Positions 1-41,823 of a stretch of DNA of 64,000 bases are shown here, piece after piece. This DNA comes from an uncultured delta proteobacterium (GTDB lineage: Bacteria; Myxococcota; Myxococcia; Myxococcales; Myxococcaceae), in the NCBI GenBank assembly GCA_963731795.1, contig CAVSWU010000003.1, positions 1,094,216-1,158,215 on the forward strand, written 5' to 3'. The notes under the pieces are model-generated. The model ran no database searches. It had not been told where the DNA came from and was given only the letters and a program-made list of their open reading frames with translations. A program made the translations under genes and the position numbers. Position 1 is the first letter of the stretch; the number at the start of each line of letters is the position of its first letter.

Positions 1-3000
1 CGGTGGCGTTGGCGGTCTGGCGCGCGGTCAGCTCCGAGGCTGGCAGGCGCACCATCTCCAGGGCCTCCCAGCCCTCACCCTCGGCCAGCCGCTGCAGCAG
101 CTCGCGGTAGGCCTGGAACATCGCGTCCACCAGGCCCGCGGGGAAGATCGCCACGAGCACGTCCCAGTGGAAGCGAAGCCCGCCGCGCGCCTCGCTGGCC
201 TGGTGATCGATCCAGACGTGGGGCGTCTCCAAGCGGGTGTGGACGGGGTGTCCCAGGAGCTGGGACTCGTCATTCGCCTGCGCATCCTCATACAGCGTGC
301 TGGCGAAGACGAAGGGCATGGCCGACGCGGCGCCCGTGCCCTGGGACAGGGCCAGCTCGCGGAGGACCTGGGTGCCGCTCACCTGGGTGTGCTCCAGATC
401 GCTCCACAGCCGCGCCTGCACCCGGCGAGCGCGCTGCGCGAAGGTGTCCCTCGGCCGGCAGTCCACCTCGAGCAGGAGGGTGGTGCTGAAGTTGCCGACC
501 ACCTCTCCGAGCCGCGGATGCAGGGGTGGCCGGTTCTGGTACAGGAGGTTGAGGGTGAAGTGGGGCGTCTGGCTCCACGCAGCCAGCACCTCAGCGTACG
601 CGGCCGCCAGCACGGCGGTGGGCGTGAGCCCCGCGCGCGTGCCGCGAGCCTTGAGGCGCTGCCATGCCTCCGCATCCACCTCGGCAGCCCACCGCTGGAA
701 GCCGCGCTCTCGCAGGGCCACCGGGGCGCTCACCTGCGGAAGCAGCGGAGCGGGTGGCAGCGTCGGCAGGCGGTCTCGCCAGTACGCCAGCGCCTTCTGG
801 TACCCCTCGTCCGCCTCGCGCGCGGCCTCCAGGTAGCGGACGTAATCCCGGTACGTCACCTCCAACGCCCCGAGGTCCGCGCCCGGATCCCGGTAGAACC
901 GCTCCAGGTCGCGGTTGATGACACGGAAGCTCTGAAGATCTCCCATCAGTAGCGGGAAGGCGAGGTGCAGCCGGTACCGCCGCTGATCGAGCCGGTGCCC
1001 CCGGAGCGTGAAGAGCGGCCAGGTATCCGGCCGCGGGTTGGCGCGAGACACGGCCGCTCGCGCCTCCTCGATGCGGCGCTCCACCTCGGCCTCGGGCAGC
1101 CCGCGCAGATCGACGACCTCCAGCTCGAACGCCGGGACCTTCGCGAGCACCTGCTGCTGTCCATCCGCGCGGACGATGCTCCGCAACGTGGCATGCCGCT
1201 CGATGACCCGCTGGAACGCGGCGTTGAAGCGCGCGACATCCAGGTCGAGCGTCTCGGCCTCGATGTAGCCCACGGCCGTCGCGCTGCTGCGCTCGAAGAG
1301 GCCCGTCTGCCCCAGCCAGTACGCCTGCTGCAGCTCCGTGAGCGCGAAGGGCTCTAGGCTGCGCTCGGGCTCGGGGATGAGCTGAACCCGCGTGGAACCC
1401 GAGCCCGCCGCTCCCCGCGCATGGGGCTGCTCCCGGGCGAGGAACTCGGCCTGCCGGGCGATGGTGGAGAGCTCGAACATGCGGGAGAGCGGCAGCTCGG
1501 TGCCAAACCGCTCTCGCAGGCGGATGATGAGCTTGACGGCCAGCAGCGAGTGTCCACCCAGCTCGAAGAAGTTGTCGTGGATGCCGACGCGCTTCACGCC
1601 GAGCAGCTCGGACCAGAGGGCCACCAGCGCGGTCTCGGTGTCGTTCCGAGGAGCCGCCACGAGCGCTGGGCGTTCCGCCTGAGCGCCCGGCTTGGGGAGC
1701 GCCCGGCGATCCGCCTTCCCGTTGGCGTTGAGAGGGAGCACCTCCAGCACCACCCACGTGGAGGGCACCATGTACTCGGGCAGCCGCTGGCGGAGGTACT
1801 CGCGGACCGCCTCTTCCGAGATGGCCGGGCCGGGCCGCGGGACGATGTAGCCCACCAGGTGCACGCTGCCCGAGGCATCCGGCGCCGCTGTCACCACCGC
1901 GTCGCGCAGCGCCTCGTGCCCGCGCAGGACGGATTCGATCTCACCCAGCTCGATGCGGATGCCGCGCACCTTCACCTGGTGGTCGGCGCGGCCCAGGAAC
2001 TCGATGTCACCGCTCGGCAGGTGGCGCGCCAGATCCCCGGTGCGGTACAGGCGCCCGGCGTCGTCCCCGGAGAACCGATCGCTCACGAAGGCGCTGGCGG
2101 TGCGCTGAGCGTCGTTGAGATAGCCCCGCCCCACGCCGACGCCGCCGACATACAGCTCGCCCACCACTCCCACGGGCACCGGCTCCATCCGGGAGTCGAG
2201 GACGTAGAGGCGCGCATTGGCGACGGGACGCCCGATGGGCAGGTGTGCCAGATCCTCGCGGGGCGGCGTGGTGATGGCGTAGTGCGCCACGTCATCCGAG
2301 CACTCGGAGCTGCCATAGGCGTTCAGCAGGGGAATGGCTGGGTAGAGCGCGAGCCACCGGCGGCAGAGGTCGGGCGGGAGCGCCTCGCCCGTGGGGACCA
2401 GCCAGCGCAGCGAAGGAAGGGCGGGCCGGGCCTGCCCTCGCGCCTCGGCATCATCCAGCATCAGGCGCATCACGGAGGGGACGATCTGCAGGACGGAGAT
2501 GCCATCCTCCGCCACCCGGTCGAGCAGGCGCCTTGAATCGCGCGCCACCGCGTCCTCCACCACGTCCACCTCGGCGCCCATGAGCAACGGCGCCAGGGTC
2601 TGCCAGATGCAAATGACGAAGGAAGGCGGAGCGGTCTGCGCCACCACGTCGCGTGCGGTGATGCCCAGATCCGTCGCCTTCGCGTAGAGGTGGTTGAGCA
2701 TGCCCCGGTGCTCGATCATTGCCCCCTTGGGCACCCCCGTGGACCCGGACGTGAAGACGACAAAGGCCAGGTTGCCGGGGGCCACACGCGCACGCTGCAC
2801 CCCGGTGCGAGCACGGATCGCGAGCAACTCCTCCACGCCCCAGAGCGCGGGACGCCCCTGCGCGGGCACCAGCGCCAGGGCCTGGGCGAGCGCGGCCCTC
2901 CGAGCCTGGGACACGAGGACACCCACGGCGCCCGCCTGCTCCAGGATCTGCGCCACGCGCTGGACGGGGTGGGAGGGCTCAATGAGCACGCACGCCCCAC

Positions 3001-4669
3001 CCGCCTCATGGACAGCCAGGATGGAGGCCAGGAAGTCGACCCCGCGATCCAGCGCGACGACGACGAGCGCCTCCGGCTTCACGCCCTGCCCCGCCAGCTG
3101 CGTGGCCAGGTGATCGACCCGCTCGGAGAGCTGCCGGTACGTCAGGCGCGCGCGGCCGGAGCGCACGGCGATGGCCTCGGGGGTGCTCGCGGCCTGCCGC
3201 CGGAAGAGCTCAGGCAGGCACAGCTCGAGAGGAAAGTCCTGGCGGCGGTCATTCCACTCCACCAGCAACCGGCGCCGCTCCGACTCGGGCAGCAGCGGCA
3301 GCTCCTTCACCGAGCGCGACGGATCCGCCAGGGCCGCGTCGAGCAGCAGGGCGAAGCCCCTGGCCATGTGGGCGATGGTCTCGGGCTCGAACAGGGCCGT
3401 GTCGTACTTGAGCTCGCAGTGGAGCCGGCCGTGGATCTCGGTCATCTCCAGGGAGAGGTCCATCAACCCCTCCTGCTGGCTCACCGGGATGGGCTCGAAG
3501 ATGAGCCCTCCGAGCTCCACCTCCACCGGCCGATCGGTGTGGAGGAAGAACGCCGACAGCTCCTCGCGAGGTGTCCGCTGGAGCATGATCATGGACTGGA
3601 AGATGGGCGAGCGGCTCGCGTCGCGCGTGGGGACGAGCCGCTCCACCATCATGGGGAAAGGGCACTCCTGGTGGGCCCGTGCATGCGTGACGGTGCGCCC
3701 GGCTGCCGCGACGAACTCCCGGAAGCTGGGCTCCCCGGCGAGGCGCGAGCGCAGCGGGAGCATGTTGATGAAGGAGCCCGCGATGCGGTCCAGCCCCTCG
3801 AGGCCCCGCCGCCCAGGCACCGGAGTGCCGACGATGACATCCTCCTGGCCCGTATAGCGGTGGAGCAGCACCTGATACGCGGCCAGGAGCACCGTCAGGA
3901 AGGTGGAGCCCTCCGCCTTGGCGAGCGCGCGGATGCGCTCGACCGTCTCCGCCCCCAGCGTGAAGGGATGCGAGCCGCCCTGGTACGACTGCACCGCGGG
4001 CCGCGAGTGGTCCAACGGCAGGTTCAGGACAGGCAGCTCGCCCGACAGCGCCTCCTTCCAGTAGCTCCAGAGCCGCTCCCCTTCAGGGCCCGCGAGCAGC
4101 TCCTCCTGCCACCGCACGTAGTCCCCGTACGTGAGCCTCAGCGGCGGCAGCTCCGCTGGCCTCCCCTCTCGCACGGCGCGGTAGAGCGTGCCCAGCTCCT
4201 CGAGCAGGACGTTCATCGTCGCCAGGTCCACGGCGATGTGGTGCAGCGTCAGGACGAAGACATGCTCTCGCGCCGAGCGCGTGAAGAGCTCCAACCGCCA
4301 CACGGGCTCGCGCTCGAGATCGAAGGGACGCCTGCCGAGCTCCTTCGCCCGCGCCTCCAGCTCACGATCGCTCTCGGAGGGCACCCTCCACTGGCGGATG
4401 TGGAAGTCCATCCGCTCGTGGACGAGCTGCATGGGCACGCCCTCGTGCACGGCGGACGTGGAGCGCAGCACCGGGTGACGCTCCGCCAGCTGGAGGAACG
4501 CCTCCCTGAGCGCGAGGAAGTCCACCTCGGACCTGACGCGCGCCGCCACGACGACGTTGTAGGCCGAGCTCTGGGGGGAGAGCTGCTGAACGAACCAGAT
4601 GGCCCGCTGCCCCTGCGACAGGGCCTGACGGCTGACAGGACGGGAGGAGACAGGCAGCGCGAGAGGCAT
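1..4669 (-). CDS. Non-ribosomal peptide synthetase, N-terminal part (C - A - PCP - Cy-like domain; gene continues past window start)
   Basis: Minus-strand frame open from ATG at 4669 (RBS AAGGAG) to position 1. Hand-translated motifs: C-domain HHIAVDLAT; A3 LAFVVFTSGSTGVPKGA (~2700-2750); A7/A8 YRTGDLARHLPSGDIEFLGRADHQVKVRGIRIELGEIE (~2040-2160); [17 protein letters not shown] (~1560-1600); downstream Cy-like FALTELQQAYWLGQ and PLLMGDLQS (~900-1400). Confidence 0.9.
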   Translation of the reverse strand, partial: MPLALPVSSRPVSRQALSQGQRAIWFVQQLSPQSSAYNVVVAARVRSEVDFLALREAFLQLAERHPVLRSTSAVHEGVPMQLVHERMDFHIRQWRVPSESDRELEARAKELGRRPFDLEREPVWRLELFTRSAREHVFVLTLHHIAVDLATMNVLLEELGTLYRAVREGRPAELPPLRLTYGDYVRWQEELLAGPEGERLWSYWKEALSGELPVLNLPLDHSRPAVQSYQGGSHPFTLGAETVERIRALAKAEGSTFLTVLLAAYQVLLHRYTGQEDVIVGTPVPGRRGLEGLDRIAGSFINMLPLRSRLAGEPSFREFVAAAGRTVTHARAHQECPFPMMVERLVPTRDASRSPIFQSMIMLQRTPREELSAFFLHTDRPVEVELGGLIFEPIPVSQQEGLMDLSLEMTEIHGRLHCELKYDTALFEPETIAHMARGFALLLDAALADPSRSVKELPLLPESERRRLLVEWNDRRQDFPLELCLPELFRRQAASTPEAIAVRSGRARLTYRQLSERVDHLATQLAGQGVKPEALVVVALDRGVDFLASILAVHEAGGACVLIEPSHPVQRVAQILEQAGAVGVLVSQARRAALAQALALVPAQGRPALWGVEELLAIRARTGVQRARVAPGNLAFVVFTSGSTGVPKGAMIEHRGMLNHLYAKATDLGITARDVVAQTAPPSFVICIWQTLAPLLMGAEVDVVEDAVARDSRRLLDRVAEDGISVLQIVPSVMRLMLDDAEARGQARPALPSLRWLVPTGEALPPDLCRRWLALYPAIPLLNAYGSSECSDDVAHYAITTPPREDLAHLPIGRPVANARLYVLDSRMEPVPVGVVGELYVGGVGVGRGYLNDAQRTASAFVSDRFSGDDAGRLYRTGDLARHLPSGDIEFLGRADHQVKVRGIRIELGEIESVLRGHEALRDAVVTAAPDASGSVHLVGYIVPRPGPAISEEAVREYLRQRLPEYMVPSTWVVLEVLPLNANGKADRRALPKPGAQAERPALVAAPRNDTETALVALWSELLGVKRVGIHDNFFELGGHSLLAVKLIIRLRERFGTELPLSRMFELSTIARQAEFLAREQPHARGAAGSGSTRVQLIPEPERSLEPFALTELQQAYWLGQTGLFERSSATAVGYIEAETLDLDVARFNAAFQRVIERHATLRSIVRADGQQQVLAKVPAFELEVVDLRGLPEAEVERRIEEARAAVSRANPRPDTWPLFTLRGHRLDQRRYRLHLAFPLLMGDLQSFRVINRDLERFYRDPGADLGALEVTYRDYVRYLEAAREADEGYQKALAYWRDRLPTLPPAPLLPQVSAPVALRERGFQRWAAEVDAEAWQRLKARGTRAGLTPTAVLAAAYAEVLAAWSQTPHFTLNLLYQNRPPLHPRLGEVVGNFSTTLLLEVDCRPRDTFAQRARRVQARLWSDLEHTQVSGTQVLRELALSQGTGAASAMPFVFASTLYEDAQANDESQLLGHPVHTRLETPHVWIDHQASEARGGLRFHWDVLVAIFPAGLVDAMFQAYRELLQRLAEGEGWEALEMVRLPASELTARQTANAT

Positions 4670-4764: not shown

Positions 4765-5685
4765 TCAGCCAGGGGAGAGCTCCTGGGAGAGCTGCTTGAG
4801 GACTCCGCGGAGCCAGGTGTGGGCGGGCTCTTGCCGCGAGCGCTCATGCCAGTACTGGCTCATGGTGAACCCTGGCAGCTCGAGCGGCGGGCGCAGGATG
4901 CGCAGGTGGAACGGCTTCTCGAAGGCGTGGGCGATGCGTGCGGGGATGGTGAGCAGCAGATCCGAGCCAGCGATCGCGTAGGGGGCCACCAGGAAGTGCG
5001 GGACGGACAGGCTGACGCGCCGCTTCTTCCCGAGCTTCGCCAGCGCGGTGTCCACGATGCCGGTGTCCTCGAACTCCCGGGGGGAGACCAGCGCGTGGGG
5101 AAACTCGAGGAAGCGCTCCAGCGTGAGCCCGCGCCGCGCCACGGGGTGCTCCGCCCGCACGAGGCAGACGAACCGCTCGGAGAACAGCTCCTGCCGGTAC
5201 CCGTCCTCCATGTCCGAGTCAAAGAGGCCGATCGCGAGATCCGCGTCTCCCCGCTCGAGCCGTTCGAACAGCAGGCTGCGCGCGGTGCGAATCGTGATGT
5301 CGATCCCCGGTGCATGCCGCTCGAGGTAGCGCACCAGGGACGGCAGCAGGACGAACTGGGCGTAGTCGGAGGCAATGATCCGGAACTTGCGCTGAGCGGT
5401 CGCTGGATCGAAGCGGGGCTGGTCGAGGACGTGCTCGACTCCCTTCAAGATGCGCTCAATCGGGTCGGCGAGCTCTTGCGCGCGAGGCGTGGGCTGCATT
5501 CCCCGGGGCGTCGAGACGAAGAGCGGATCCTCGAAGAGGTTCCGCATCCGGCGCAGCGCATGGCTCATCGCGGACTGGCTGATGCCGAGCCGAGCCGCTG
5601 CTCGCGTGACGTTCTTCTCCCGAAGGAGCGTGTCCAGGGCGACGAGCAGGTTCAGATCAATGCTCACCAGGCGAGGAGGAGGCAT
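4765..5685 (-). CDS. LysR-family transcriptional regulator
   Basis: 306-aa ORF; N-terminal wHTH (LLVALDTLLREKNVTRAAARLGISQSAMSHALRRMR) plus LysR substrate-binding region. Directly upstream of the NRPS gene and co-oriented. Confidence 0.9.
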   Translation of the reverse strand: MPPPRLVSIDLNLLVALDTLLREKNVTRAAARLGISQSAMSHALRRMRNLFEDPLFVSTPRGMQPTPRAQELADPIERILKGVEHVLDQPRFDPATAQRKFRIIASDYAQFVLLPSLVRYLERHAPGIDITIRTARSLLFERLERGDADLAIGLFDSDMEDGYRQELFSERFVCLVRAEHPVARRGLTLERFLEFPHALVSPREFEDTGIVDTALAKLGKKRRVSLSVPHFLVAPYAIAGSDLLLTIPARIAHAFEKPFHLRILRPPLELPGFTMSQYWHERSRQEPAHTWLRGVLKQLSQELSPG

Positions 5686-10788: not shown

Positions 10789-12360
10789 CTACTGCTGCAC
10801 CTCGAGCGGCGTATACAGCTGTGGCGTCGGGAAAGTCTCCTGAGCGCAAGAGGTCCCTTCGTCAACGATCGAGTTGCAGTTGTTGTCCTTCCCGTCGCAT
10901 ACCTCGGCGGCTCCGGGATGCACACTGGGGTCCGTATCGTCGCAGTCGTTGGACGTGGCTCCGTAACCCGGGGGCGGAGTGCAGCCCCAGGGGGCGGGGC
11001 TGATGGCCCAAATGTCGCCGTACCCGTCCCCATCAAAATCCTGAGAGAAAGCGCGAGGCAGCGTGGCGTCCGCATCGTTGCAGTCGCTGGAGTCAGACAC
11101 GTAGCCAGCCGGCGCGGAGCAGGCTTGGATGCTCTCCGCGGCATTGCCGCGCCCGTCCCCATCCGCGTCACGGTAGTAAGTGGTATCTCCCCCCACCCCC
11201 TCGTCGATGGAGCCATTGCAGTTGTCATCCACTCCATTGCACGCCTCGGCAGCCCCGGGCTTCACGCTGGCGTTGGAATCGTTGCAGTCGCTGGAATTGG
11301 ACACGTAGCCCGCTGGCGCCGAGCACGCCTGGGTGCTCACCGCCGCATTGCCGTACCCGTCCCCATCCGCGTCACGGTAGTAGGTGTTCAGGGGCCCTCC
11401 CTCACCCGACGGTCCGTCACAGTCGTTGTCGTGGCCACCGCAGCTCCCGCCGATGTCGCGGTCACTCAGCGCGTTGATGTGGCCCTCCGCGTTGCCTGTC
11501 AGTGATCGGGCATAGATTCCGCCGTCCCAACTGCCATTGCTGAAGTGGATATGAGCCTGGGGGGCCAATAACGTACCCCAGAAGCCAAAGCCGTCGGCGT
11601 TGATGCTCGTCGCCTCCGGAAAGTTGTAGAGCACGCCGTGCTGGTCGATGCCGCCGCTAAACGAGTGGCCGAAGCCCGTGAAAGTGGCTGTGCTGCCGGA
11701 GATGTTCACTACGGCCAGAGAACCCGCTGGCGCGTCGATAGACAGCAGCTTGGCGCCGGTGAAGGAGTTGGCGTTCACCTGGAAGACGTTCACGTCTGGA
11801 GCTGTGCCGCGCAGCATGACACCGCCCCAGGGCTCAACGGTCGTCATGCCGTTGACCGCCAGACCGGCCAGCCGGGAGGACAGGCCGCGCAACTCAGCAA
11901 ACCGGGCTGCAAAGTCGATAGGTGTCCCGTGCGCCGCGGTGCCTCGAGGGAAGACCACGGATGGATCGGTGGTGTAATCGCCCCCGTACCAGGCATCTCC
12001 CCAGACGCCGCCGCGAGAGAGCGTCAAGTGGCCACCCGCCACCAACACCTGGGCCGTGTTGCTGTCCGGCACACCCGCCCCCACCGCAAAGTCAGTCAGG
12101 GTGATGTTGCCGCCCGCCGCCACCTTGCCTTGTACGTCATGTCCCTGGCTGTAGTCCTCGAGCAAGAACAGGTTGTGGCCACTCAGGCGGATCTGAATGC
12201 ACGCCAGGAGTGGCGGGGAGGTGGGGGAAGTCTCAATCAGCTTCCCGGCGGCAGCGCGATCACCCGCTTCGTCTTCGTGGACAAAACCGCAGGCCCCTAC
12301 AAGCGCCCCCAGAAGCAACCAAGACAGATGAACGCGGACGACTCTCCAAGCGCCTCTCAT
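10789..12360 (-). CDS. Secreted lipoprotein with choice-of-anchor-A-like N-domain and three MopE-type Cys-rich putative metal-binding repeats
   Basis: Start ATG at 12360 (RBS GGGGGA); signal plus lipobox LLGALVGAC. Repeats YYRDADGDGYGNAA.S.QACSAPAGYVS.SSDCND...PGAAE.C.G.D.NCN match the PF11617-like consensus (CDDxD..V.PGA.E.CDG.DNDC). Confidence 0.8.
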   Translation of the reverse strand: MRGAWRVVRVHLSWLLLGALVGACGFVHEDEAGDRAAAGKLIETSPTSPPLLACIQIRLSGHNLFLLEDYSQGHDVQGKVAAGGNITLTDFAVGAGVPDSNTAQVLVAGGHLTLSRGGVWGDAWYGGDYTTDPSVVFPRGTAAHGTPIDFAARFAELRGLSSRLAGLAVNGMTTVEPWGGVMLRGTAPDVNVFQVNANSFTGAKLLSIDAPAGSLAVVNISGSTATFTGFGHSFSGGIDQHGVLYNFPEATSINADGFGFWGTLLAPQAHIHFSNGSWDGGIYARSLTGNAEGHINALSDRDIGGSCGGHDNDCDGPSGEGGPLNTYYRDADGDGYGNAAVSTQACSAPAGYVSNSSDCNDSNASVKPGAAEACNGVDDNCNGSIDEGVGGDTTYYRDADGDGRGNAAESIQACSAPAGYVSDSSDCNDADATLPRAFSQDFDGDGYGDIWAISPAPWGCTPPPGYGATSNDCDDTDPSVHPGAAEVCDGKDNNCNSIVDEGTSCAQETFPTPQLYTPLEVQQ

Positions 12361-12447
12361 ATGGATCCCCCTGCTGTGGCAGTCTATTTCAGACCTATCA
12401 CGCTTGCCTTCTTCAGATCCATCTCGACTTCGAACTGATCCAGCGGC

Positions 12448-13072
12448 TTGTACCCAACGCGCCCAGCGGGCGTGAAGATGTACGTCGTTGTGAGGCGCCC
12501 ACAGCAGTACGAGGCGGTGAGGGACAACCTCGCTACGCTGCTGGCGGAGGCCGGAGTAGGGGGTGTTGGCGCACGGGTTCGCGCGGGTGCAGTGCGAGAG
12601 TTGCAAGGACGAGCTTCTGGTGGCCTTCTCGTCTGTGACGGCAGTGCACCGGGTGGAGCAGGTGCTGCCGCAGGTGCCCTACCGGCAGTGGACGCTGTCG
12701 TTTCCTCACCGGGTGCGGTGGGTGCTGCTGAAGGAGGCGGGAGTGCTCTCGCAGGTGCTCACCCTCTTCCTGCGCGCGGTGTTCGCCCTGCTCCCCCAAG
12801 CAGGTGCGGAGGAGGCGAGCGCGGGGAAGGAGGCAGCGGCCAGAACAGAGCGGATGAAGCAGGGGACGCCACGAGTGGACTGGGCCGAGTTGCTCAGCAG
12901 GACGTTCGACTTCGACGTGTTCGCCTGCGTGAGGTGTGGAGGCAGGCGCCGGGTGTTGGCGTACGTGAAGGGAGCACGAGGGGTGCGGGCGATTCTGAAG
13001 CACCTGGGCCTGCCCACGGCAGGTGCGAGGCTGGCCCCGGCGCGAGGGCCACCCCAGGCAGCGTGGTGTTGA
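12448..13072 (+). mobile_element. IS91-family transposase gene, internally deleted/frameshifted relic (copy 2)
   Basis: Frame 1 (12448..) has [16 protein letters not shown] (N-term). Frame 2 (12563..13072) has [22 protein letters not shown]...VPYRQWTLSFPHRVRWVLLKE... then the typical IS91 C-terminus VDWAELLSRTFDFDVFACVRCGGRRRVLAYV...ILKHLGLPT; central HUH/Tyr catalytic region is deleted. Same orientation as copy 1. Confidence 0.7.
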
Positions 13073-27476: not shown

Positions 27477-28004
27477 CTAGGCGGTCGGCTGCTTGGGGGC
27501 CTTGACGCCCTTGCCCGCGTGCGCCTTGGAAGCGGACTCGGGCTTGTGCGCCACCAGCGGGAGCACCTCCACCGCGCCGCCCGCCTTCTCGATGGCCTCC
27601 CGGGCCTTGCCCGACAGCTTGTGCACCCGGACGGTCAGCTTCTTGGAGAGCTCGCCCTGGCCCAGCACCTTCACGCCGTCGTAGCGGCCCTTCACCAGGC
27701 CCTTGCCCTTCAGCGCCGCCTCGTCCACCGTGGCGCCCGCGTCGAACCCGTTCAGGTCCGCCAGGTTCACCACCGCGTAGATGACGCGGTTGGGCGAGAT
27801 GAAGCCGAACTTCGGCAGCCGGCGCTGCAGGGGGCTCTGGCCGCCCTCGAAGCCCTCGAACCGCATGTTGCCGGAACGAGCCTTCTGGCCCTTGCCACCG
27901 CGGCCCGCCGTCTTGCCCAGGCCGCTACCCTGGCCACGGCCCACGCGCTTCTTGCGGTGCCACGAGTTGTGCGGCCGCTTCAGGTTGTTGAGAGTGTTCG
28001 ACAT
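27477..28004 (-). CDS. rplO: 50S ribosomal protein L15
   Basis: Full-length L15. Confidence 0.95.
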
Positions 28005-28061
28005 CTTGAAATCCTCGCGCGCGATGGCCCCGCTTCACGGAGCCCCGCGGAATGAGTCGTG

Positions 28062-28322
28062 CTAGCTCTTCGCCGCCTTGGCGCGCGCCCTGTCACGGAC
28101 GACGATCTTGCGCGGCTTGCGGCGCTTGGGCGCCGGAGCCTCCTGGGCCACCGTCTCGCTGGAGACCAGGTGCTTCACCTTGAACACCAGGCCGCGGTTG
28201 GACGGCGTGTCCTTGAGCAGCCGCTCGTCGCCGAACTTCTTCAGGCCGAGGCCGCGGATGGTGTCGAGCATGTCCTTGGAAGAGCCAGAGGAGCTCTTCA
28301 CCAGCTTCACCTTGAGCGCCAT
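28062..28322 (-). CDS. rpmD: 50S ribosomal protein L30 (C-terminal basic extension)
   Basis: [29 protein letters not shown]... inside the longer ORF. Confidence 0.9.
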
Positions 28323-28324
28323 GA

Positions 28325-28846
28325 CTAGGTCCTCGCCTCTCCGGCCAGCTTCGCCGACTCGACGTCCTTGCCGCGCAGCCGGGAGACCTGCTCGGCCGAG
28401 CGCAGCTTCTTCAGGCCCGCCACCGTGGCCTTCAGCACGTTGTGCGGGTTGCGCGAGCCCTGGCTCTTGGTCAGGATGTTGCGGATGCCCGCCGCCTCGA
28501 GGACCGCGCGCACCGCGCCACCGGCGATGACGCCGGTACCCTCGCTGGCCGGCTTCAGCAGCACCCACCCGGCGCCGAAGTGCCCGAGGATCTCGTGCGG
28601 AATCGTGTGCCCCATCAGCGGCACGCGGAACAGGTTCTTCTTCGCGTTCTCGCCGCCCTTGCGGATGGCCTCGGGGACCTCGTTGGCCTTGCCCAGGCCC
28701 ACGCCCACATGGCCGTTGCCGTCGCCCACCACCACGAGGGCGGCGAACGAGAACCGGCGGCCACCCTTCACCACCTTGGCCACGCGGTTGATGTTCACCA
28801 CGCGGTCGGTGAGGTCCAGGTCGTTCGGATTGATCGGAGTTGCCAC
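28325..28846 (-). CDS. rpsE: 30S ribosomal protein S5
   Basis: Full-length S5. Confidence 0.95.
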
Positions 28847-28869
28847 TTGGAGTGCTTCCTTTCGAATTT

Positions 28870-29223
28870 CTAGAACTTCAGCCCGGCCTCGCGCGCGGCG
28901 TCAGCCACGGCAGCGATGCGCCCGTGGTACGGGAAGCCGTTGCGGTCGAACACCACCGCCTCGACGTTGGCCGCCTTGCACTTCTCGGCGATGAGCTTGC
29001 CCACGCGCTTGGCGTCCGCCTTCTTGTCACCCTCGTCCTGGCCCTTGAGTTCCTTGGAGAGCGACGAGGCGTAGGCCAGCGTCTTGCCCGTGGAGTCATC
29101 CACCACCTGGGCGTAGATGTGCTTGAGGCTCTTGTACACCGTGAGCCGCGGCCGCTCGGTGGTGCCCGAGAGCTTCTTGCGGATGCGGTTCTTCCTCTTG
29201 ATGCGCGGATCGACAGTCGGCAT
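28870..29223 (-). CDS. rplR: 50S ribosomal protein L18
   Basis: Full-length L18 (..[22 protein letters not shown]). Confidence 0.95.
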
Positions 29224-29331
29224 GGCTGATTCCTTTTCCTTCCGGCGGCGATCAGGCCTTCCGCCGCCGGATGATCGCGAGCCCCCAGAGGCGCTCGCGG
29301 GGTTGAACGTTCAGGGCACGGAGGACCTTTA

Positions 29332-29898
29332 TCAGGTCGTACCGGTCTTGCCCTCCTTGCGACGAACCTTCTCCTCCGCGTACTTGATGCCCTTGCCCTT
29401 GTACGGCTCGGGCGGGCGCAGCGCGCGGATCTTCACGGCGGCGGCCCCCAGGGCCTCCTTGTCCGCCGAGCGCAGGGTGAGATCCACCGTGGGGAGGCTC
29501 TCCTCGGTGCGGGCCGTCTTGTCCACCTCGGCCGTCACACCCTCCGGCAGGTTGAACACCACCGGGTGCGAGTAGCCCAGCGCGAACTGGATCGTCTTGC
29601 CCTTGACCTCGGCGCGGAAACCGACGCCGCGGATGCTCAGGCGGCGCTCGAAGCCCGTGCTCACGCCCTTGGCGGCGTTGGCCAGGATGGTGCGGGCCAG
29701 GCCGTGCAGGCTCCGGGCCTCGCGCGAGTCATCCTCGCGGACCACCAGCACGTTCCCGTCCTTCACCTCCACCTTCACCTTGGCGGGGAGGTTCACGGAC
29801 AGCTTGCCCTTGGGGCCCTCGAAGTTGACCTTCTTGCCGGCGACGCTCACCTTCGACTTGTCGCCCAGCTTGATCGGCAGTTTTCCAATGCGACTCAT
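29332..29898 (-). CDS. rplF: 50S ribosomal protein L6
   Basis: Start MSRIGKLPI inside the longer ORF. Confidence 0.95.
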   Translation of the reverse strand: MSRIGKLPIKLGDKSKVSVAGKKVNFEGPKGKLSVNLPAKVKVEVKDGNVLVVREDDSREARSLHGLARTILANAAKGVSTGFERRLSIRGVGFRAEVKGKTIQFALGYSHPVVFNLPEGVTAEVDKTARTEESLPTVDLTLRSADKEALGAAAVKIRALRPPEPYKGKGIKYAEEKVRRKEGKTGTT

Positions 29899-29959
29899 GA
29901 TGGCCTCGTAAGGTCTGCCCGGCACGCGCCCCTCTCGGGTCGCGGCGCCAGGCCACTGG

Positions 29960-30370
29960 CTAGTAGACGGTGCAGAGCAGCTCGCCGCCGATGTTCTGCT
30001 TGCGCGCCTCGCCGTCCGACATGATGCCCTTGGACGTGGACAGCACGGCGATGCCCATGCCGCCGAGCACGCGGGGAATGTCACGCACCGCCACGTAGCG
30101 GCGCAGGCCCGGCTTGGACACGCGCTTGATGCCGGTGATGGCGGAGCTCCGGTCCTGCCCGTACTTCAGCTGGACGGTGATCTCGCTCTGCGGAGCGCGC
30201 TCGTGGACGGTGAACTCGCCGATGTAGCCCTCATCCTTGAGGACGCGAGCGATCTCGACCTTGAGCTTCGAGTGGGGAATGACGACCTTGTCGTGCCGCG
30301 CACGCGAGGCGTTGCGCAGGCGGGTCAGCATATCGCCGACAGGATCATTGACCGGCTTCATGGGTGACAA
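29960..30370 (-). CDS. rpsH: 30S ribosomal protein S8
   Basis: Full-length S8 ([13 protein letters not shown]...). Confidence 0.95.
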
Positions 30371-30529
30371 CCTTCCGTGCGGGAGCCTCCTGGGCTTCCC
30401 GCGCTTTCGACCGCCGCGCCTGCCGGGCCCATCCCGGGGGTTCGCCGCGTTCGCACAACTCTGGGGCTTCGGCGCTTCAGCCGCGCCAGGAGGCCCCGGG
30501 CCACTCAGGCCCCGGGCACCCTCTTCCGG

Positions 30530-30715
30530 CTACCAGGACGACTTGGTGACGCCGGTGATCTCACCGCGCAGCGCGCGCAGGCGCAGGCAGATACGGCACA
30601 TCTGGAACTTGCGAAGGAACGCGCGCGGCCGGCCGCACAGCGGGCAGCGGTTGTACTTGCGCACGGAGAACTTCGGCTTGCGCTTCGCCTGGGCGATCTT
30701 GGAGAGCTTGGCCAT
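30530..30715 (-). CDS. rpsZ: 30S ribosomal protein S14 type Z (Zn-ribbon form)
   Basis: 61 aa with CPLCGR...CRIC. Confidence 0.95.
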
Positions 30716-30736
30716 GGAGCTTGGATTCCTCGGGAG

Positions 30737-31402
30737 TTACTGGCGGAACGGCATGCCGAAGTGACGCATCAGCGCCAGCCCCTGCTCGTCGTTCTTCGCG
30801 GTGGTGACGAAGCTGATGTTGAGCCCCTTCACCTTCTCGATCTGGTCGTAGTTGATTTCCGGGAAGATGATCTGCTCGCGGATGCCGAGCGTGTAGTTGC
30901 CCTTCCCGTCGAACGCCTTGGGGGACACGCCCTTGAAGTCACGCACGCGCGGCAGCGCCACGGAGATGAGGCGGTCCAGGAACTCGTACATCCGGTCGCC
31001 GCGCAGCGTGACGGCGCAGCCGATGGCCTGGCCCTGGCGCAGCTTGAAGTTCGCGATCGACTTGCGAGCGCGCGTGACGACCGGCTTCTGGCCGGTGATG
31101 GCGCCCAGCTGGTCCACCGCCGACTCCAGGATCTTGTTGTTGGCGAGCGCCTCGCCCAGACCCATGTTGACGACGATCTTCTCGAGCCGCGGCACCTGGA
31201 AGGGGTTCTTCAGGCCCAGCTCCTTCATCAGGGCGGGCACTCCCTCCTTGCGGTAGCGCAGCTTCAGCCGCGCCGGCTTCGCCTCGAGGCCCTCCTCGAT
31301 GTTGGCCGCAAAGCCAGCCTTCTTGACGTCTTCCTTCTTGCGGCCCTTCTTTTCCTTCTTTTCCTTCTTCTCTGCCTGCTCGGGCTTCTTCTCATCAGCC
31401 AT
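30737..31402 (-). CDS. rplE: 50S ribosomal protein L5 (Lys/Glu-rich N-terminal extension)
   Basis: L5 core preceded by [28 protein letters not shown]. Confidence 0.95.
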
Positions 31403-31576
31403 TGTGTCAGTCCTCTGCTTCGGAGCGCCGTCGTGGACCCAGCGGCCCCGATCAGTACGTCTGGAATCTCAAAAACACCGAGAGGGCCCCGCTACTTCAG
31501 GCCCTCTGTATGCATGCCTGCTCGCCCCTGGCCTCGGGTGGCCAAAGGGCGCGCATACATGCCCGAACCCGCCTTC

Positions 31577-31906
31577 CTAGTCAATCAGGGCGTCGCAGTT
31601 CTTGCAGAACCGCTTCTGGGTCTCGCCCTCGGCCCGGATACCCACCCGGGTCGGCTTGTCGCACTTGCCGCACACCACTTGGACGTCCGAGAGAGCGATG
31701 GTGCCCGCCTTCTCGATGATGCCGCCCTCGGGGTTCTGCGCCGTCTTGCGGAGGTGGCGCTTGACCATCCGCAGCCCCTCCACCGTGACGCGCCCGGCCT
31801 CGCGGTCAATCTTCAGCACCTTGCCGCGCTTGCTCGCCGGCGTCTTCTCCGAGCGCTCGGCGCCTGAGATGACCTGCACGGTGTCTCCAACCTTCAGCTT
31901 CTGCAT
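31577..31906 (-). CDS. rplX: 50S ribosomal protein L24 with C-terminal C4 zinc-ribbon-like extension
   Basis: KOW region MQKLKVGDTVQVISG... then CGKCDKP...CKNC. Confidence 0.95.
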   Translation of the reverse strand: MQKLKVGDTVQVISGAERSEKTPASKRGKVLKIDREAGRVTVEGLRMVKRHLRKTAQNPEGGIIEKAGTIALSDVQVVCGKCDKPTRVGIRAEGETQKRFCKNCDALID

Positions 31907-31947
31907 GGCTTCCTCTCTGGCTGCTCGCCGGCAGGCCTGGTGTCCTC

Positions 31948-32316
31948 TTAGAGGACCTCGGGCGCGAGCGAGATGATCTTCATGAACTTGCGGGCGCGGA
32001 GCTCGCGGGCAACCGGCCCGAAGATGCGCGTGCCAATGGGCTCCATGTCCTTGTTGATGAGGACGGCGGAGTTGCCATCGAACTTGATGTAGCTGCCGTC
32101 CGCCCGGCCCACCTCGTGCCTGGTGCGGACGATGACGGCCTTGGCCACGTCGCCCTTCTTCACCTTCGAGTTGGGCAGCGCCTCGCGGATCGACACGACG
32201 ATCACGTCGCCGATGGACGCATACTTGCGCTTCGAGCCGCCGAGCACCTTGATGCAGAACACCTTCTTGGCGCCCGAGTTGTCGGCCACGTCGAGCACGC
32301 TCGTCATCTGAATCAT
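31948..32316 (-). CDS. rplN: 50S ribosomal protein L14
   Basis: Full-length L14. Confidence 0.95.
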
Positions 32317-32415
32317 CTGGAAGTCTCCTCTAAGGTCCTACGGCAGCCCCTACCCGGCGAGGGGCGGGACCGCGCGGCTCGAGCCGCCCGCGCCCAAGGG
32401 TGCGGGCCACGTGGC

Positions 32416-32733
32416 TCAGACGTTCTTGCTCTTCTCGATCACCTCGACCACCCGCCACCGCTTGTCCTTCGAGGCCGGCCGCGTCTCGGCGATGCGCACG
32501 CGGTCACCCTCGTTGATGGTGATCTTCTTCGGGTAGTCGTGGTCCTCGACGTGCGCCTTGTACTTCTCGCGCATGCTCATGATCTTGCCGTACTTGGCGT
32601 GCGGCGCGCGGCGCTGGACGGTGACGATCACCGTCTTCTGCATCTTGTTCGAGGTGACAATCCCCACGCGCGTCTTGGGACGGCCGCGGGAGGAGCTCTC
32701 GGGAGCGGAGGTGGTCTGGGTCTCTTCAGCCAT
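32416..32733 (-). CDS. rpsQ: 30S ribosomal protein S17
   Basis: Full-length S17 with N-terminal extension. Confidence 0.95.
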
Positions 32734-32809
32734 CGTGAATCTCGCCTGTCAGTCAGTGTTCCCGGGACGTCCCGGTGAGGGTGCCCCTGGTCCAGGGGCA
32801 CGCCGGAAG

Positions 32810-33013
32810 CTACTTCTTCTCCGCCCGCTTCTTCTCCGTCATCACGGTGAGGACACGGGCCAGGTCACGGCGGTGCTGGGTGCGCTGCGAGGGGCTGTCC
32901 AGATTGCCCGTCCGCATGCTCAGCTGGTCCTGGAACAGCGTGCCGCGCAGTTCATCCGCGCGCCGCTGCAGGTCCTCCACCGACAACTCCTTCAGTTCCT
33001 TCGCAGTCGCCAT
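32810..33013 (-). CDS. rpmC: 50S ribosomal protein L29
   Basis: Full-length L29. Confidence 0.95.
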   Translation of the reverse strand: MATAKELKELSVEDLQRRADELRGTLFQDQLSMRTGNLDSPSQRTQHRRDLARVLTVMTEKKRAEKK

Positions 33014-33035
33014 CTTCAGTCTCCAGGCCGGGCAG

Positions 33036-33455
33036 CTAGATCGACAGCTGGCCGCGGTTCACGATCTTGGTGAGGACAGGCAGCTTCGCCTGCGCGAGCT
33101 TGAGCGCAGCGGTGGCCACGTCGGCCGTCATGCCCTCCATCTCGTAGAGGATGCGGCCCGGCTTCACCACGGCCACGTAGTACTCCACGCCACCCTTACC
33201 GGTACCCATACGGGTCTCGGCGGGCTTCTTCGTGATGGGCTTGTCCGGGAAGATCCGGATCCAGATCTTACCGCCGCGCTTCACGTGGCGGGTCATCGCG
33301 ATACGGGCCGCCTCGATCTGGCGCGAGGTGATCCACCCCGGCTGCAGGGACATGAGGCCGTACTCACCATAGGTGAGATCGCTGCCGCGGTAGGCCTTAC
33401 CGGGGGTGCGGCCCTTGTGCATCTTGCGATACTTGGTACGAGCAGGCTGAAGCAT
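33036..33455 (-). CDS. rplP: 50S ribosomal protein L16
   Basis: Full-length L16. Confidence 0.95.
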
Positions 33456-33510
33456 CGTCGGTGTCCTTCATCCCCGCAGGGGCACCCGTGGGCGCCCCGG
33501 GGAGCTCAAG

Positions 33511-34173
<663 letters not shown>

Positions 34174-34206
34174 CGTGCTTCTCCTTAAAGTTGAAGGCCC
34201 GGAGGG

Positions 34207-34551
34207 CTACTTCTTGGCCTCGGCGAGCACCACGTGAACGTGGGCGCTCTTCTTGTTGATTCGCGTCGCGCGGCCCATGGCGCGCGGCATGTACCGGCGC
34301 TGGGTGGGGGCCTGGTCCACGGAGATGGTCTTCACGTAGAGCGTGTCCACGTCGACCTGGCCCTTGGACTTGTCGGTGGCGTTGGCCACGGCGCTCTTGA
34401 TGAGCTTGCCGAGCGGAGCCGCCGCAGCGCGGGGGGTGAACTTGAGGATGTTGAGGGCAGCCTCGACGGGCTTGCCTCGGACGAGCGCAGCCACCGTGGA
34501 CAGCTTCCGGGGCGACATGCGGACGTAGCGCAGATGTGCAGTGGACTCCAT
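34207..34551 (-). CDS. rplV: 50S ribosomal protein L22
   Basis: Start MESTAHLRYVRMSP (second Met of the listed ORF). Confidence 0.9.
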   Translation of the reverse strand: MESTAHLRYVRMSPRKLSTVAALVRGKPVEAALNILKFTPRAAAAPLGKLIKSAVANATDKSKGQVDVDTLYVKTISVDQAPTQRRYMPRAMGRATRINKKSAHVHVVLAEAKK

Positions 34552-34575
34552 CGTCATCTCCTAGAGCGGTCCGGA

Positions 34576-34863
34576 CTACTTACCGGGGGCCTTGGCGACC
34601 TTCTTCTCGGCCGAGTGCCCACCGAAGGTCCGCGTCGGCGCGAACTCGCCGAGCTTGTGACCCACCATGTTCTCCGTGACGAACACCGGGACGAACTTCT
34701 TCCCGTTGTGCACCGCGAAGGTGTGTCCGACGAACTCCGGCAGGATGGTGGAGCGCCGCGACCACGTCTTCACGACCTTCTTCTGGTTCGTCTTGATCAT
34801 GTCCTCCACCTTCTTGAGGAGATGATCGTCGACGAACGGTCCCTTCTTGATCGAACGAGCCAT
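34576..34863 (-). CDS. rpsS: 30S ribosomal protein S19
   Basis: Full-length S19. Confidence 0.95.
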
Positions 34864-34885
34864 TTCGGAATCCTTGGGCTACGAG

Positions 34886-35731
34886 CTACTGGCTGCGCGG
34901 TCCCTGCCGGCGCTTGCTCACGATGAACTTGTCGGTCCGCTTGTTGGTGCGCGTGGTGAGACCCTTGGTCTTCTGGCCCCACGGCGACACCGGGTGCGGG
35001 TTACCCTGGCCGGACTTACCCTCACCACCACCGTGCGGGTGGTCGACAGGGTTCATGGCCAGACCGCGGACGGTGGGCCGGATGCCCAGCCAGCGGCTCT
35101 TACCCGCCTTACCGATGCGGATGATCTCATGCTCGATGTTGCCGAGCTGGCCCACGGTGGCCCGGCACTCGATGAGCACCTTGCGCACCGCGCCCGAGGG
35201 CAGGCGGATCTGGGCGTAGCGGTCCTCCTTGGCCATCAGCTGACCGGAGGTGCCGGCCGAGCGGATGATCTGGGCGCCGCGGCCCGGCTTCAGCTCCACG
35301 TTGTGGATGACCGTACCCACCGGGATGTTCAGCAGCGGCAGGCAGTTGCCCGGCCGGATGTCCGAGTTCGGACCGGCGAACAGGGTGTCACCCACCGCCA
35401 GGCCCACGGGGGCCAGGATGTAGCGCTTCTCGCCGTCCGCGTAGTGCAGCAGCGCGATGTTGGCGGTGCGGTTCGGGTCGTACTCCACGGAAGCGACCTT
35501 GGCCGGCACGCCATCCTTGTCCCGGCGCTTGAAGTCGATGACGCGGTAGCGGCGCTTGTGGCCACCGCCCTGGTGACGCCGGGTGATGTGGCCGTGAACG
35601 TTGCGGCCGCCCGAGCGCTTCAGCGGAGCGGTGAGCTTCTTCTCCGGCGTGTCCTTGGTGATGTCCGCGAAGTCGGACACCGTCATCAGGCGACGGGCTG
35701 CTGAGGTCGGCTTGTACTTCTTGATGCCCAT
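34886..35731 (-). CDS. rplB: 50S ribosomal protein L2
   Basis: Full-length L2. Confidence 0.95.
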
Positions 35732-35768
35732 GGTGATTATCCTCGATCAGGCGGTCAGCGCGGTGCGC

Positions 35769-36062
35769 CTAGGCCGTCGTTCCCTCGAAGAGCTCGATCT
35801 TGTCGCCCTCCTTGAGGGTGACGACGGCCTTCTTGTAGTTGGGGCGCTGGCCGATGCTCTTGCCCACGCGCTTGACCTTGCCGCGGACGATGTTGGTGCG
35901 CACGCCCTCGACGGTGACCTTGAACAGGTTCTCCACCGCGCGAGCCACATCCACCTTGGTCGCCTTCTTGTCGACGATGAAGGAGTACTGGCGGAACTTC
36001 TCGCGGGCCTGGTCCAGCTTCTCGGTGATGAGCGGACCCTTGATGACGTCGTGGATCTTCAT
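35769..36062 (-). CDS. rplW: 50S ribosomal protein L23
   Basis: Full-length L23. Confidence 0.95.
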
Positions 36063-36682
36063 GACAGGGCCTCCTGGATGGCCTTGGCGGCCGCGGAGGT
36101 CAGCACGAGCTGCTTGTGGCGCAGCACGGACTCGAGGTTGAGCCCCTCGGGCGGCAGCACGTCGAACTGAGCCAGGTTGCGCACGCTGCGGTGCAGGTTG
36201 GTGTTGCCCTTCTCGTCGATGACGAGGGCGTTCTCCAGCTTCAGGCGCTTGGTGAGCACGTCGAAGGCCTGCTTGCTCTTCGCGGCGTCCAGCTTGAAGC
36301 CGTCGAGGATCACCAGGGCGTTCTCCTTGGCGCGCAGGGACAGCGCCGCGCGGAGCGCGCCGCGACGAACCTGGCGGGGAGGACGGTAGGTGTAGTCCCG
36401 GGCCTTGGGAGCCATGGCCTTACCACCGCCCACCCAGTGGGAGGCGCGGATGGAGCCCTGACGAGCGCGGCCAGTGCCCTTCTGCTTCCAGGGCTTCTTG
36501 CCACCACCGCTCACCAGCGAGGTGTTCTTCACACCCACGGTGCCGCGGCGCCGGTTGATCTGCTGCATCTTCGCCACCTCGTAGAGGAGGTGGGGGTTCG
36601 GCTCGGCGCCGAACACCTCGTCGGAGAGTTCGATCTCCGACACCTGCTTGCCATCCAGGTCGATTACCTTGAACTTCGCCAT
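36059..36682 (-). CDS. rplD: 50S ribosomal protein L4
   Basis: L4 signature [22 protein letters not shown]; follows rpsJ with only a ~50-nt spacer, with no rplC. Confidence 0.95.
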
Positions 36683-36732
36683 GACATTTCCTCGGGGGTC
36701 GGAGTGGAACTGCGCCAGTCCTCACCCGCGTC

Positions 36733-37041
36733 CTAGGACTTGATCTCCACGTCAACGCCAGCCGACAGATCCAGCTTCATCAGCGCATCCAGCGTCTGCT
36801 GGGTGGGCTCGAGGATGTCGAGCAAGCGCTTGTGCGTGCGGATCTCGAACTGCTCGCGGCTCTTCTTGTCCACGTGCGGCGACCGCAGAACCGTGAACTT
36901 GTTGATGCGCGTGGGCAGGGGGATCGGACCGGCCACCTTGGCGCCCGTGCGCTTGGCCGTCTCAACAATCTCCCCGGCGCTCTGGTCCAGGAGCTTCGAG
37001 TCGTACGCCTTCAGCCGGATGCGAATCTTCGTTGTCGCCAT
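36733..37041 (-). CDS. rpsJ: 30S ribosomal protein S10
   Basis: Full-length S10. Confidence 0.95.
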
Positions 37042-37224
37042 TTCGAAAAAACCTCTTAGACGGCCCCGCTGTTGGAGGCGTTACGACCGACGTCCCCTGG
37101 ATGTCACAGAGCCGTGCTTCAGACGAGGGGCGCGGCATTTACCACCCCACCCCTCTGGTTGCAACTCTATTCCGACACCACCCCGGCGAGCCACTGTCTG
37201 GCCGCCGGGGTGCAGTCAGCCAAA

Positions 37225-38415
<1,191 letters not shown>

Positions 38416-38541
38416 GACTTCTCCTGGTGGGGGCCAGCCCGGTGGCCGGCATTTTTCGGCAAAACGAAGGTGCTGCGTCCTGCTCCAATGTGACTGAAAG
38501 ATCAACAGAAATCGGCAGGGTGGGCACCCTGCGGGCAGCCG

Positions 38542-40617
<2,076 letters not shown>

Positions 40618-40755
40618 GGCCCAATACCCTTCTTCGAATCGGGAGCCTGGTTGCTCCCTCTCCCTGATTCACGACCACCCAAACGGATTGTCAGAGAACT
40701 GCAACACCCGGATACGCCAGGCGCATCCGGGTGTCAGACCGCGAGGCCGTCAGGC

Positions 40756-41226
40756 CTACCAGCGGTAGTGCGCGAAGGCCTTGTTCGCCTCCGCCATCTT
40801 GTGCGTGTCCTCGCGCTTCTTCACGGCGTTGCCGCGGTTGTTGGCGGCATCCATGATCTCGCCGGCGAGCTTCTCCTGCATGGTCTTCTCACCACGCGCC
40901 TTGGCGTAGGAGATGATCCAGCGCATGCCGAGCGCCACGCGGCGGTCCTGACGGACCTCGACGGGGACCTGGTAGGTGGCGCCACCGACGCGGCGGCTCT
41001 TCACCTCGAGGACGGGCTTGACGTTGTCCAGGGCCTTCTTGAACGTCTTCAGGGGCTCTTCCTTCGCCCGCTCCTCGATGAGGGCAAAGGCGCCGTAGCA
41101 CACGCCCTCGGCGATGGACTTGTTGCCCTTGCGCATCAGGTCGTTGACGAACTTGGTGACGAGCCGATCCTGATACTTCGGATCAGGCAGGATCTTCCGC
41201 TTCGCTACTACGCGACGACGAGGCAT
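40756..41226 (-). CDS. rpsG: 30S ribosomal protein S7
   Basis: Full-length S7. Confidence 0.95.
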
Positions 41227-41367
41227 CTCTTCTTCCCTTACGCCCCACCCCCGCTAGGCGGGAGCCAACAGGGGCTTCATGAACTGCACGGAACAACGAA
41301 ACAAGGCGCGCTCCCCAGGGTGTGGGGCGAGCGTCCTGATCCGACTTCTGGAGGTGATCGAACCGCT

Positions 41368-41739
41368 TCAGCTCGGGCGCTTGGCGCCGTACTTGGAGCG
41401 GCTCTGCTTGCGGCCCGCCACGCCCACGGAGTCCAGCGTGCCACGGATGATGTGGTAGCGGACGCCCGGGAGATCCTTCACGCGGCCTCCGCGGATCATC
41501 ACCACGGAGTGCTCCTGGAGGTTGTGACCCACGCCCGGGATGTACGAGGTGACTTCAATCCCGTTGGTGAGGCGCACGCGCGCCACCTTGCGAAGGGCCG
41601 AGTTCGGCTTCTTCGGCGTGGTGGTGTACACGCGGGTGCAGACACCACGCTTCTGAGGGCTCTCCTTCAGAGCGGGGCTCTTCCCCTTGAAAACCATCTT
41701 CTCGCGGCCCTTGCGGACCAGCTGGCTGATCGTCGGCAC
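41368..41739 (-). CDS. rpsL: 30S ribosomal protein S12
   Basis: Full-length S12 ([14 protein letters not shown]..). Confidence 0.95.
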
Positions 41740-41823
41740 TGACGCTTCCTTCTCTCATGGCCCCCAGCGCTGGACACGTGGCGGCACATATAGACCTACA
41801 ACTACGCTAGAAAAAGGGCCGCG

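Follow-up and report, generated by a model that had tools for sequence, protein, structure and literature searches.

In the adenylation (A) domains of nonribosomal peptide synthetases (NRPSs), two residues, Asp235 and Lys517 (GrsA numbering), position the α-amino and carboxylate groups of the substrate. Hydroxy-acid A domains carry Gly or Ala at position 235, and McyG has Val there (Val227), yet McyG adenylates l-Phe in vitro. StsA_A (PDB ID: 6ULX), from the cereulide-type depsipeptide synthetases, is the sole keto-acid A domain for which a structure is available, and it has Ile306 in place of Asp235; the only further contact that is essential comes from the carbonyl of the backbone between residues Gly414 and Met415, with Met415 replacing a proline that is conserved in amino-acid domains. 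The substitution M415P abolishes the activity of StsA, and P483M or P483A allows LgrA to gain keto-acid activity. Known bacterial keto-acid modules are arranged A-KR-T (KR, ketoreductase domain; T, thiolation domain). Here we describe the 5′ part of an NRPS gene from an uncultured member of the Myxococcaceae, located at the start of a 64,000-nucleotide stretch of contig CAVSWU010000003.1 (hereafter the window), the A domain of which has Val at position 235.

Two further systems are relevant to this domain. The synthetase PvdL has the module order Glu, d-Tyr, 2,4-diaminobutyrate (Dab); module 3, for d-Tyr, holds its single epimerization (E) domain, and its last module loads l-Dab. In edeine, an isoserine residue is directly followed by 2,3-diaminopropionate (Dap). 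An A domain that lacks Asp235 would not in itself astonish a specialist; what appears to be new, judging from the sequence comparisons below, is such a domain within the Dab/Dap lineage, where it carries a convergent D235V/P325S switch.

The adenylation domain and its specificity code

The NRPS gene lies on the minus strand and crosses the start of the window, which holds only its 5′ part (2..4669), encoding 1556 amino acids from an ATG at 4669 with the domain order C-A-PCP-Cy (C, condensation; PCP, peptidyl carrier protein; Cy, heterocyclization). This assignment is based on a minus-strand frame that is open from 4678 to 2 over 1559 amino acids, with a GC content at third codon positions (GC3) of 0.91, on Pfam matches, on a ribosome binding site (AAGGAG) ahead of the ATG and on an in-frame stop close upstream. 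The identical start is called on a 3.2-kb public contig, 95 nt past the LysR gene. The A domain spans amino acids 492-988 (1715..3205, minus), as defined by Pfam and by alignment to GrsA: AMP-binding (PF00501) covers residues 492-854 with an E-value of 2e-78, AMP-binding_C (PF13193) covers residues 913-988, and the TIGR01733 score of 398 bits exceeds the cutoff of 317.

The register of the specificity code was taken from GrsA. The GrsA sequence used gives the textbook code DAWTIAAICK at canonical positions 235-517, and its E-domain part matches the GrsA PDB entry with an E-value of 0; we therefore consider it a sound reference. In a MAFFT alignment of the window A domain with GrsA and 120 homologs, the region from core A3 to A4 is free of gaps and assigns Val to position 235, Ile to 236 and Trp to 239. 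The register is unchanged in HMMER alignments to the solved chains of LgrA and PvdL, in which FDISVA and FDISVWQ, respectively, stand against FVICIWQ. The sequence-only reading of this DNA had proposed that Asp235 is replaced by Val with Lys517 kept, and this holds in all three gap-free comparisons. It had placed the A4 core FVICIW at 2592-2609, about 11 nt from where it is found (2603..2620, minus); the Val235 codon, GTC at 2615-2617, is a single base away from the Asp codon GAC. The complete 10-residue code is VIWQVTADDK.

The remainder of the domain is that of a real, intact NRPS adenylation domain. Lys517 (codon 1715-1717) is retained in the A10 core NGKADR (1706..1723, minus), cores A3 (TSGSTGVPKG), A7 (YRTGD) and A8 (GRADHQVKVRG) are intact, and Glu327 of A5 is kept. 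The spacing from A8 to A9 is normal (50 amino acids), and thus neither a KR nor a methyltransferase domain is inserted. The A5 core itself reads NAYGSSECSDD (2291..2323, minus), in which the residue following Gly324 is Ser325 (codon 2309-2311) rather than the conserved Pro of NxYGPTE. This core had been described as non-canonical as a whole, which is correct for the change of Pro325 to Ser; the "ECSDD" tail, in contrast, is typical of the lineage, as it places Asp330 and Asp331 in the pocket and is common to ~100 relatives with Asp235 and to PvdL module 4.

Clade membership and the paired change at positions 235 and 325

The homologs of the window domain identify its lineage. Among the 120 best, 108 read FD(I/V)S(V/I)WQ in A4 and N(A/T)YGP(T/A)ECSDDV in A5, with codes of the form DIWE[LIV]TADDK or DIWQ.T.DDK. 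In NCBIfam, the window domain is best matched by positions 3708-4226 of PRK05691, a PvdL-length model of 4334 positions; in the PDB, the top match over A4-A5 is the A domain of PvdL (E-value 1e-39; PDB ID: 9lcp and 9up2), which is the only solved member of the clade. The PvdL chain comprises an E domain (95-525), a C domain (570-1009) and an A domain (1014-1543) with the code DIWELTADDK; since the single E domain of PvdL belongs to module 3, this construct corresponds to E3-C4-A4-T4, and the code is that of the last A domain, which takes l-Dab. Explaining the match instead as PvdL module 2, which would have suggested a γ-linked Glu and a "γ-glutamyl" role, is ruled out by this E domain together with the NCBIfam positions. 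The same code occurs in a Pseudomonas locus (L021; L numbers denote fetched loci) ~7.9 kb and one E-containing module past a Glu/Gln-type domain, and genes for SbnA/SbnB equivalogs, which act in l-2,3-diaminopropionate synthesis, adjoin Asp235 members of the clade in L082, L017 and L001.

The window code scores as 8/10 identical to DIWELTADDK, and the agreement includes Ile236, Trp239, Thr301, Ala322, Asp330, Asp331 and Lys517; PvdL module 4 also has the "ECSDDV" extension of A5. The window domain differs from PvdL in Asp235 to Val, Pro325 to Ser and Glu278 to Gln, and its overall identity to the Asp235 relatives is only ~50-57%. The pocket residues of the clade (I236, W239, Q278, T301, A322, D330 and D331) are nevertheless all present. 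On these comparisons the window domain descends from a Dap/Dab-activating lineage for which PvdL module 4 is the characterized reference. By analogy with known ornithine and Dab codes, the acidic floor formed by Glu or Gln278, Asp330 and Asp331 under Trp239 would suit a short side-chain ammonium group.

Other leads to the specificity of the clade were set aside. An NCBIfam match to SolG (solanimycin) concerns a Ser-type domain and is uninformative, and the bolagladin and AFC-BC11 systems use VinN-type activation of the Asp β-carboxyl group by a separate enzyme family. A full-text literature search with the clade code strings (TADDK, DIWELTADDK and variants) and with VDWVISLADK returned nothing relevant, and the clade strings are absent from one PARAS supplement. 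Among the homologs there are also two fragments (P0152 and P0119) with a rare Asn235 variant of the clade motif, FNISVWQ, in which Pro325 is kept; these differ from the departure to Val.

The change at position 235 is coupled to the loss of the A5 proline. In the 121-domain alignment, 11 domains have Val235, and none of the 11 has Pro325 (Ser, Ala or Cys is found there), compared to 90 of the 109 Asp235 domains that keep it. These Val-type domains do not form a single clade. In a neighbor-joining tree, supported by nearest-neighbor identities, they fall into several lineages: P0002, which is 84.6% identical to its nearest Asp-type relative and 60% identical to the nearest other Val-type domain; P0021, with 73% and 60%, respectively; P0054; the window domain together with P0001; and a Bradyrhizobium-type group. 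When every column was scanned, 235 and 325 proved to be the only two at which each of the five lineages departs from the Asp-type consensus. This alignment and tree thus show that Asp235 was replaced by Val, and Pro325 lost, in at least four to five independent events within the Dab/Dap clade.

This pattern extends beyond the clade. Across 487 A domains from the fetched loci, 43 of the 44 that lack Asp235 also lack Pro325, and Pro is kept in 387 of the 443 with Asp235; the 44 include β-alanine-type domains (VDW..ADK, with YGSSE) and acyl- or aryl-type domains (YGM.E). A profile search with the Val-type A4-A5 segments added 24 further Val-type sequences, all short unnamed fragments, and the seven of these that extend over A5 all lack Pro325. 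At position 325 the Val-type lineages carry Ser, Ala, Cys or Met. A 76%-identical homolog has the same code as the window domain, and many Bradyrhizobium species keep the Val-type form. Given the 43/44 count, the convergent co-change and the Ile306/Met415 precedent of StsA, Val235 and the missing A5 proline are best regarded as one feature, which probably marks domains without α-amino recognition.

StsA_A is alike in having a hydrophobic residue at 235 and a replaced A5 proline, both of which were shown to bear on whether an α-amine is accepted or rejected. It differs in that these residues are Ile and Met rather than Val and Ser, in its hydrophobic side-chain pocket and in its embedded KR domain, none of which is seen in the window domain. 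McyG shares Val at 235 but is a loading domain for phenylpropanoids or Phe, with an aromatic pocket and without a C-A-T module. The BlmIV-type β-alanine A domains (V-D-x-x-V-S-x-A-D-K; reference codes VDWVVSLADK, VDWLFSLGDK and VDATVSIADK) share Val235, a proline-free YGSSE, Asp331 and Lys517 with the window domain, but they have Asp236 where it has Ile236 and belong to another lineage (~40% identity), and the window domain has the Asp330/Asp331/Gln278 pocket. Their proteins share the layout C-A-PCP-Cy with the window gene; in them a Cys module follows, and the Val235 β-alanine domain comes before the modules that form the thiazole. A BlmIV-like protein, ORF108, has the β-alanine code VDATVSIADK followed by Cys and two Cy domains.

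The clearest case is the metagenomic contig L082, where the A domains of two adjacent modules are near-identical from A3 to A8, the exceptions being D235V, P325S and a few more positions. The pattern suggests that a module was recently duplicated and that one copy then switched its specificity. The gene order in this locus (L082:139-10407) is Val-type module, Asp-type module and thioesterase domain, then a major facilitator superfamily transporter and the SbnA/SbnB equivalogs.

The candidate substrate and its alternatives

We propose that the window domain most likely adenylates a small acid that has a distal primary amine and lacks an α-amine, a reading to which we assign a probability of roughly 0.55. 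Through the changes of Asp235 to Val and Pro325 to Ser, an amino group beside the activated carboxylate would no longer be recognized, and the acidic lower pocket for a short side-chain ammonium group (Gln278, Asp330 and Asp331 under Trp239) would be unchanged. As recognition of the carboxylate-side ammonium is apparently lost and the side-chain pocket is untouched, the substrate would be Dab or Dap minus its α-amine. The simplest such acids are 4-aminobutyrate (GABA) and β-alanine, in which the α-carbon is a CH2 group; the next candidates would be isoserine, 4-amino-2-hydroxybutyrate or its 2-oxo analog, in which it is oxygenated. All Val-type domains that we have seen sit behind a C domain (for example in the Bradyrhizobium loci, L081, L082, L083, L084, L085 and L166), with three A domains upstream in L085 and a further module downstream in L166 and L082, and a substrate in this position must therefore bring a nucleophile.

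A plausible sequence of reactions can be drawn for the window protein. The adenylated acid would be loaded onto the phosphopantetheine serine (codon 1547-1549) of the PCP domain, which occupies amino acids 1017-1080 (1439..1630, minus; PF00550) and has the motif GGHS. The N-terminal, elongation-type C domain would next take an upstream acyl or peptidyl chain from another protein and join it to the distal amine, and this acylation would create a backbone-extended amide. Finally, the Cy domain may condense the unit with Cys, Ser or Thr to give an azoline, comparable to the β-alanine to thiazole segment made by BlmIV-type proteins in bleomycin. An ester or unusual linkage had been suggested by the sequence-only reading; since the α-amine would be missing and the distal amine available as the acceptor, an amide on the distal amine appears more likely than an ester.

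Several points weigh against this proposal. The code cannot tell Dap from Dab, and hence a C3 from a C4 acid, and the α-substituent (H, OH or =O) is not readable from sequence. The precedent of StsA concerns keto acids, not ω-amino acids, McyG is a Val235 domain that nevertheless adenylates an α-amino acid in vitro, and no characterized Val235 member of the Dab/Dap clade was found in our literature and homology searches. The window domain also has Gln278, where PvdL has Glu, as well as Cys237, and the remaining assembly line, with any precursor-supply genes, lies beyond the window.

Substrates without a free α-amine had been predicted from the loss of Asp235, specifically α-hydroxy, α-keto, aryl or other carboxylic acids. 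The general class is supported by the 43/44 count, the co-change and StsA, whereas aryl acids and hydrophobic keto or hydroxy acids are unlikely in view of the acidic Dab/Dap pocket. An α-keto or α-hydroxy acid would necessarily have to be a 2-oxo or 2-hydroxy analog of Dab or Dap, such as 4-amino-2-oxobutyrate, 4-amino-2-hydroxybutyrate or isoserine, joined to the upstream unit by an ester or by an amide on the distal amine. The combination of a hydrophobic residue at 235 with a residue other than Pro at 325 is the very pair described for StsA, hydroxy-acid domains have small residues at 235, and the order of isoserine and Dap in edeine mirrors the succession of Val-type and Asp-type modules beside Dap-synthesis genes in L082. 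The comparison with keto-acid A domains breaks down at the module level, however: no KR domain is embedded in or located beside any Val-type module that we have seen, unlike the known A-KR-T modules. In addition, the variation at residue 325 does not point to a dedicated hydrogen bond with an OH or C=O group, and the Val235/Ser325 pair is also found in β-alanine-type domains, the substrate of which has a plain CH2 at this carbon. We regard this alternative as rather unlikely.

A second alternative, which we hold to be less probable again, is that l-Dab, l-Dap or another α-amino acid is still loaded, with Val235 and Ser325 being tolerated and serving to tune affinity or to favor an Nα-modified substrate. 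The activation of l-Phe by McyG indicates that Asp is not strictly required, and the rest of the pocket is as in the Dab/Dap-type relatives; if this were the case, the window domain would be a further natural counter-example, beside McyG, to the requirement for Asp235. Against it stand the independent recurrence of the paired change, which is always to Val and always accompanied by the loss of Pro325, its conservation among Bradyrhizobium species, and the Val/Asp twins in consecutive modules of L082, which would duplicate each other if both took the same substrate. That the A domain is degenerate and inactive, with another enzyme loading the PCP in trans, is very improbable: the near-invariant first code position is lost, and inactive A domains of the BlmIII type are known from related assembly lines, but the catalytic cores (A3, Glu327 of A5, A7, A8 and Lys517 of A10) are intact, the GC3 of 0.91 indicates clear coding constraint and the code is retained in the 76%-identical homolog.

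The ω-amino-acid reading of the window domain can be extended to the other Val-type lineages, with what we would call an even chance of being correct. A recurrent natural switch of Asp235 to Val with Pro325 to Ser or Ala may turn Dap/Dab A domains into loaders of ω-amino acids (GABA, β-alanine or isoserine-like acids) and so create β- or γ-peptide links; the product of the window gene would be an uncharacterized aminoalkyl-azoline peptide, and that of the Bradyrhizobium FadD-T-C-A-T-C protein an N-acyl-ω-amino acid conjugate. If true, positions 235 and 325 would constitute a compact natural recipe for a des-amino A domain that leaves the side-chain pocket untouched, and its repeated, minimal occurrence within one lineage would offer a clean and testable specificity rule. 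Such a rule would be useful for the engineering of A domains and for specificity predictors, which now have no label for this code, and it would point to unexplored backbone-extended peptides in myxobacteria-like organisms, Bradyrhizobium and many lineages of soil metagenomes.

Module context and neighboring genes

The protein begins with a C domain (amino acids 19-472; 3263..4624, minus; PF00668, E-value 1e-137) with the motif HHIAVDL. Among solved structures it is closest to the elongation-type C domains in Txo1, Txo2 and TycC (E-values 1e-75 to 1e-62); its scores against CDA-C1 and RzmA, both of them starter C domains, are no higher than 72 and 46 bits. On this comparison, a starter (lipo-initiation) identity is less likely. 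Because the C domain is elongation-like, the donor chain probably comes from another protein, and the earlier description of a C-A-PCP module that opens the protein while standing mid-assembly-line is thus accurate as to the gene start and reasonable as to the position.

The last ~460 residues of the visible protein, after the PCP domain, make up the predicted Cy domain of the next module (68..1384, minus). The closest solved relative of this domain is EpoB Cy (E-value 2e-97), followed by the Cy domains of Irp2, BmdB and PchE. In place of the DxxxxD motif the window has PLLMGD (938-955, minus), with the first Asp changed to Pro where EpoB reads D-LINV-D, and "AWS" is changed to "LQS"; the relatives read the canonical FD(L/Y/A)LI(G/V)DAWS, and the canonical Asp is kept in EpoB and in all closer metagenomic Cy relatives for which the motif was located (11/16). 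In these relatives the Cy domain is followed by Cys-type A domains. A scan of genome contigs gave no relative above 52% identity, and a metagenome scan with the PCP-Cy part gave nothing above 45%. The layout of the window and BlmIV recurs in the metagenomic contig L091 (8429-13204), where an unrelated Val235/Ser325 A domain (VAWL.SLSNK) lies directly upstream of PCP-Cy-A(Cys).

The Bradyrhizobium group has a different architecture. In Bradyrhizobium sp. LMG 9283 (L009:6731-15473) a FadD7-like acyl ligase is fused to T-C-A-T-C, the A domain being Val-type with the code VIWEITADDK, and the same cluster is found in L005-L008, L011, L015, L018, L081, L083 and L084. Its neighbors are a phosphopantetheinyl transferase and, in most loci, a luciferase-like monooxygenase, as well as a divergent SAM/guanylate-cyclase/AAA/TPR regulator and a PCMT-like methyltransferase. 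The protein in L133 resembles this architecture, with a FadD-like ligase ahead of the A domain, but residue 235 differs: the domain (frame +2, code GDQLFGL[A]DDK) has Gly235 and Asp236 together with Asp330 and Asp331.

Directly upstream of the NRPS gene in the window is a gene for a LysR-family regulator (4765..5685, minus; Pfam HTH_1 and LysR_substrate), which is likely the edge of the NRPS cluster. The genes past it (GAF, GDT1, IndA-like and EamA) are unrelated to the NRPS by Pfam, a Pfam scan of the ten NRPS-proximal window open reading frames (ORFs) revealed no evident precursor-supply gene, and sbnA and sbnB were not found in the window by tblastn. The IndA-like protein (PF04227; 7178-8092, minus) is near the NRPS gene and has no evident link to it, and the same applies to a 605-amino-acid protein with pAdhesive_15 and MopE metal-binding repeats (10789-12606, minus). 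Further along, from 28000 to 42000 on the minus strand, there is a crowded run of small ORFs of high GC3 together with ORFs of 438 and 708 amino acids. Judged by ORF sizes alone, this run looks like a ribosomal-protein/EF-Tu/EF-G operon; if so, the edge of the NRPS cluster would be ~25 kb from core housekeeping genes.

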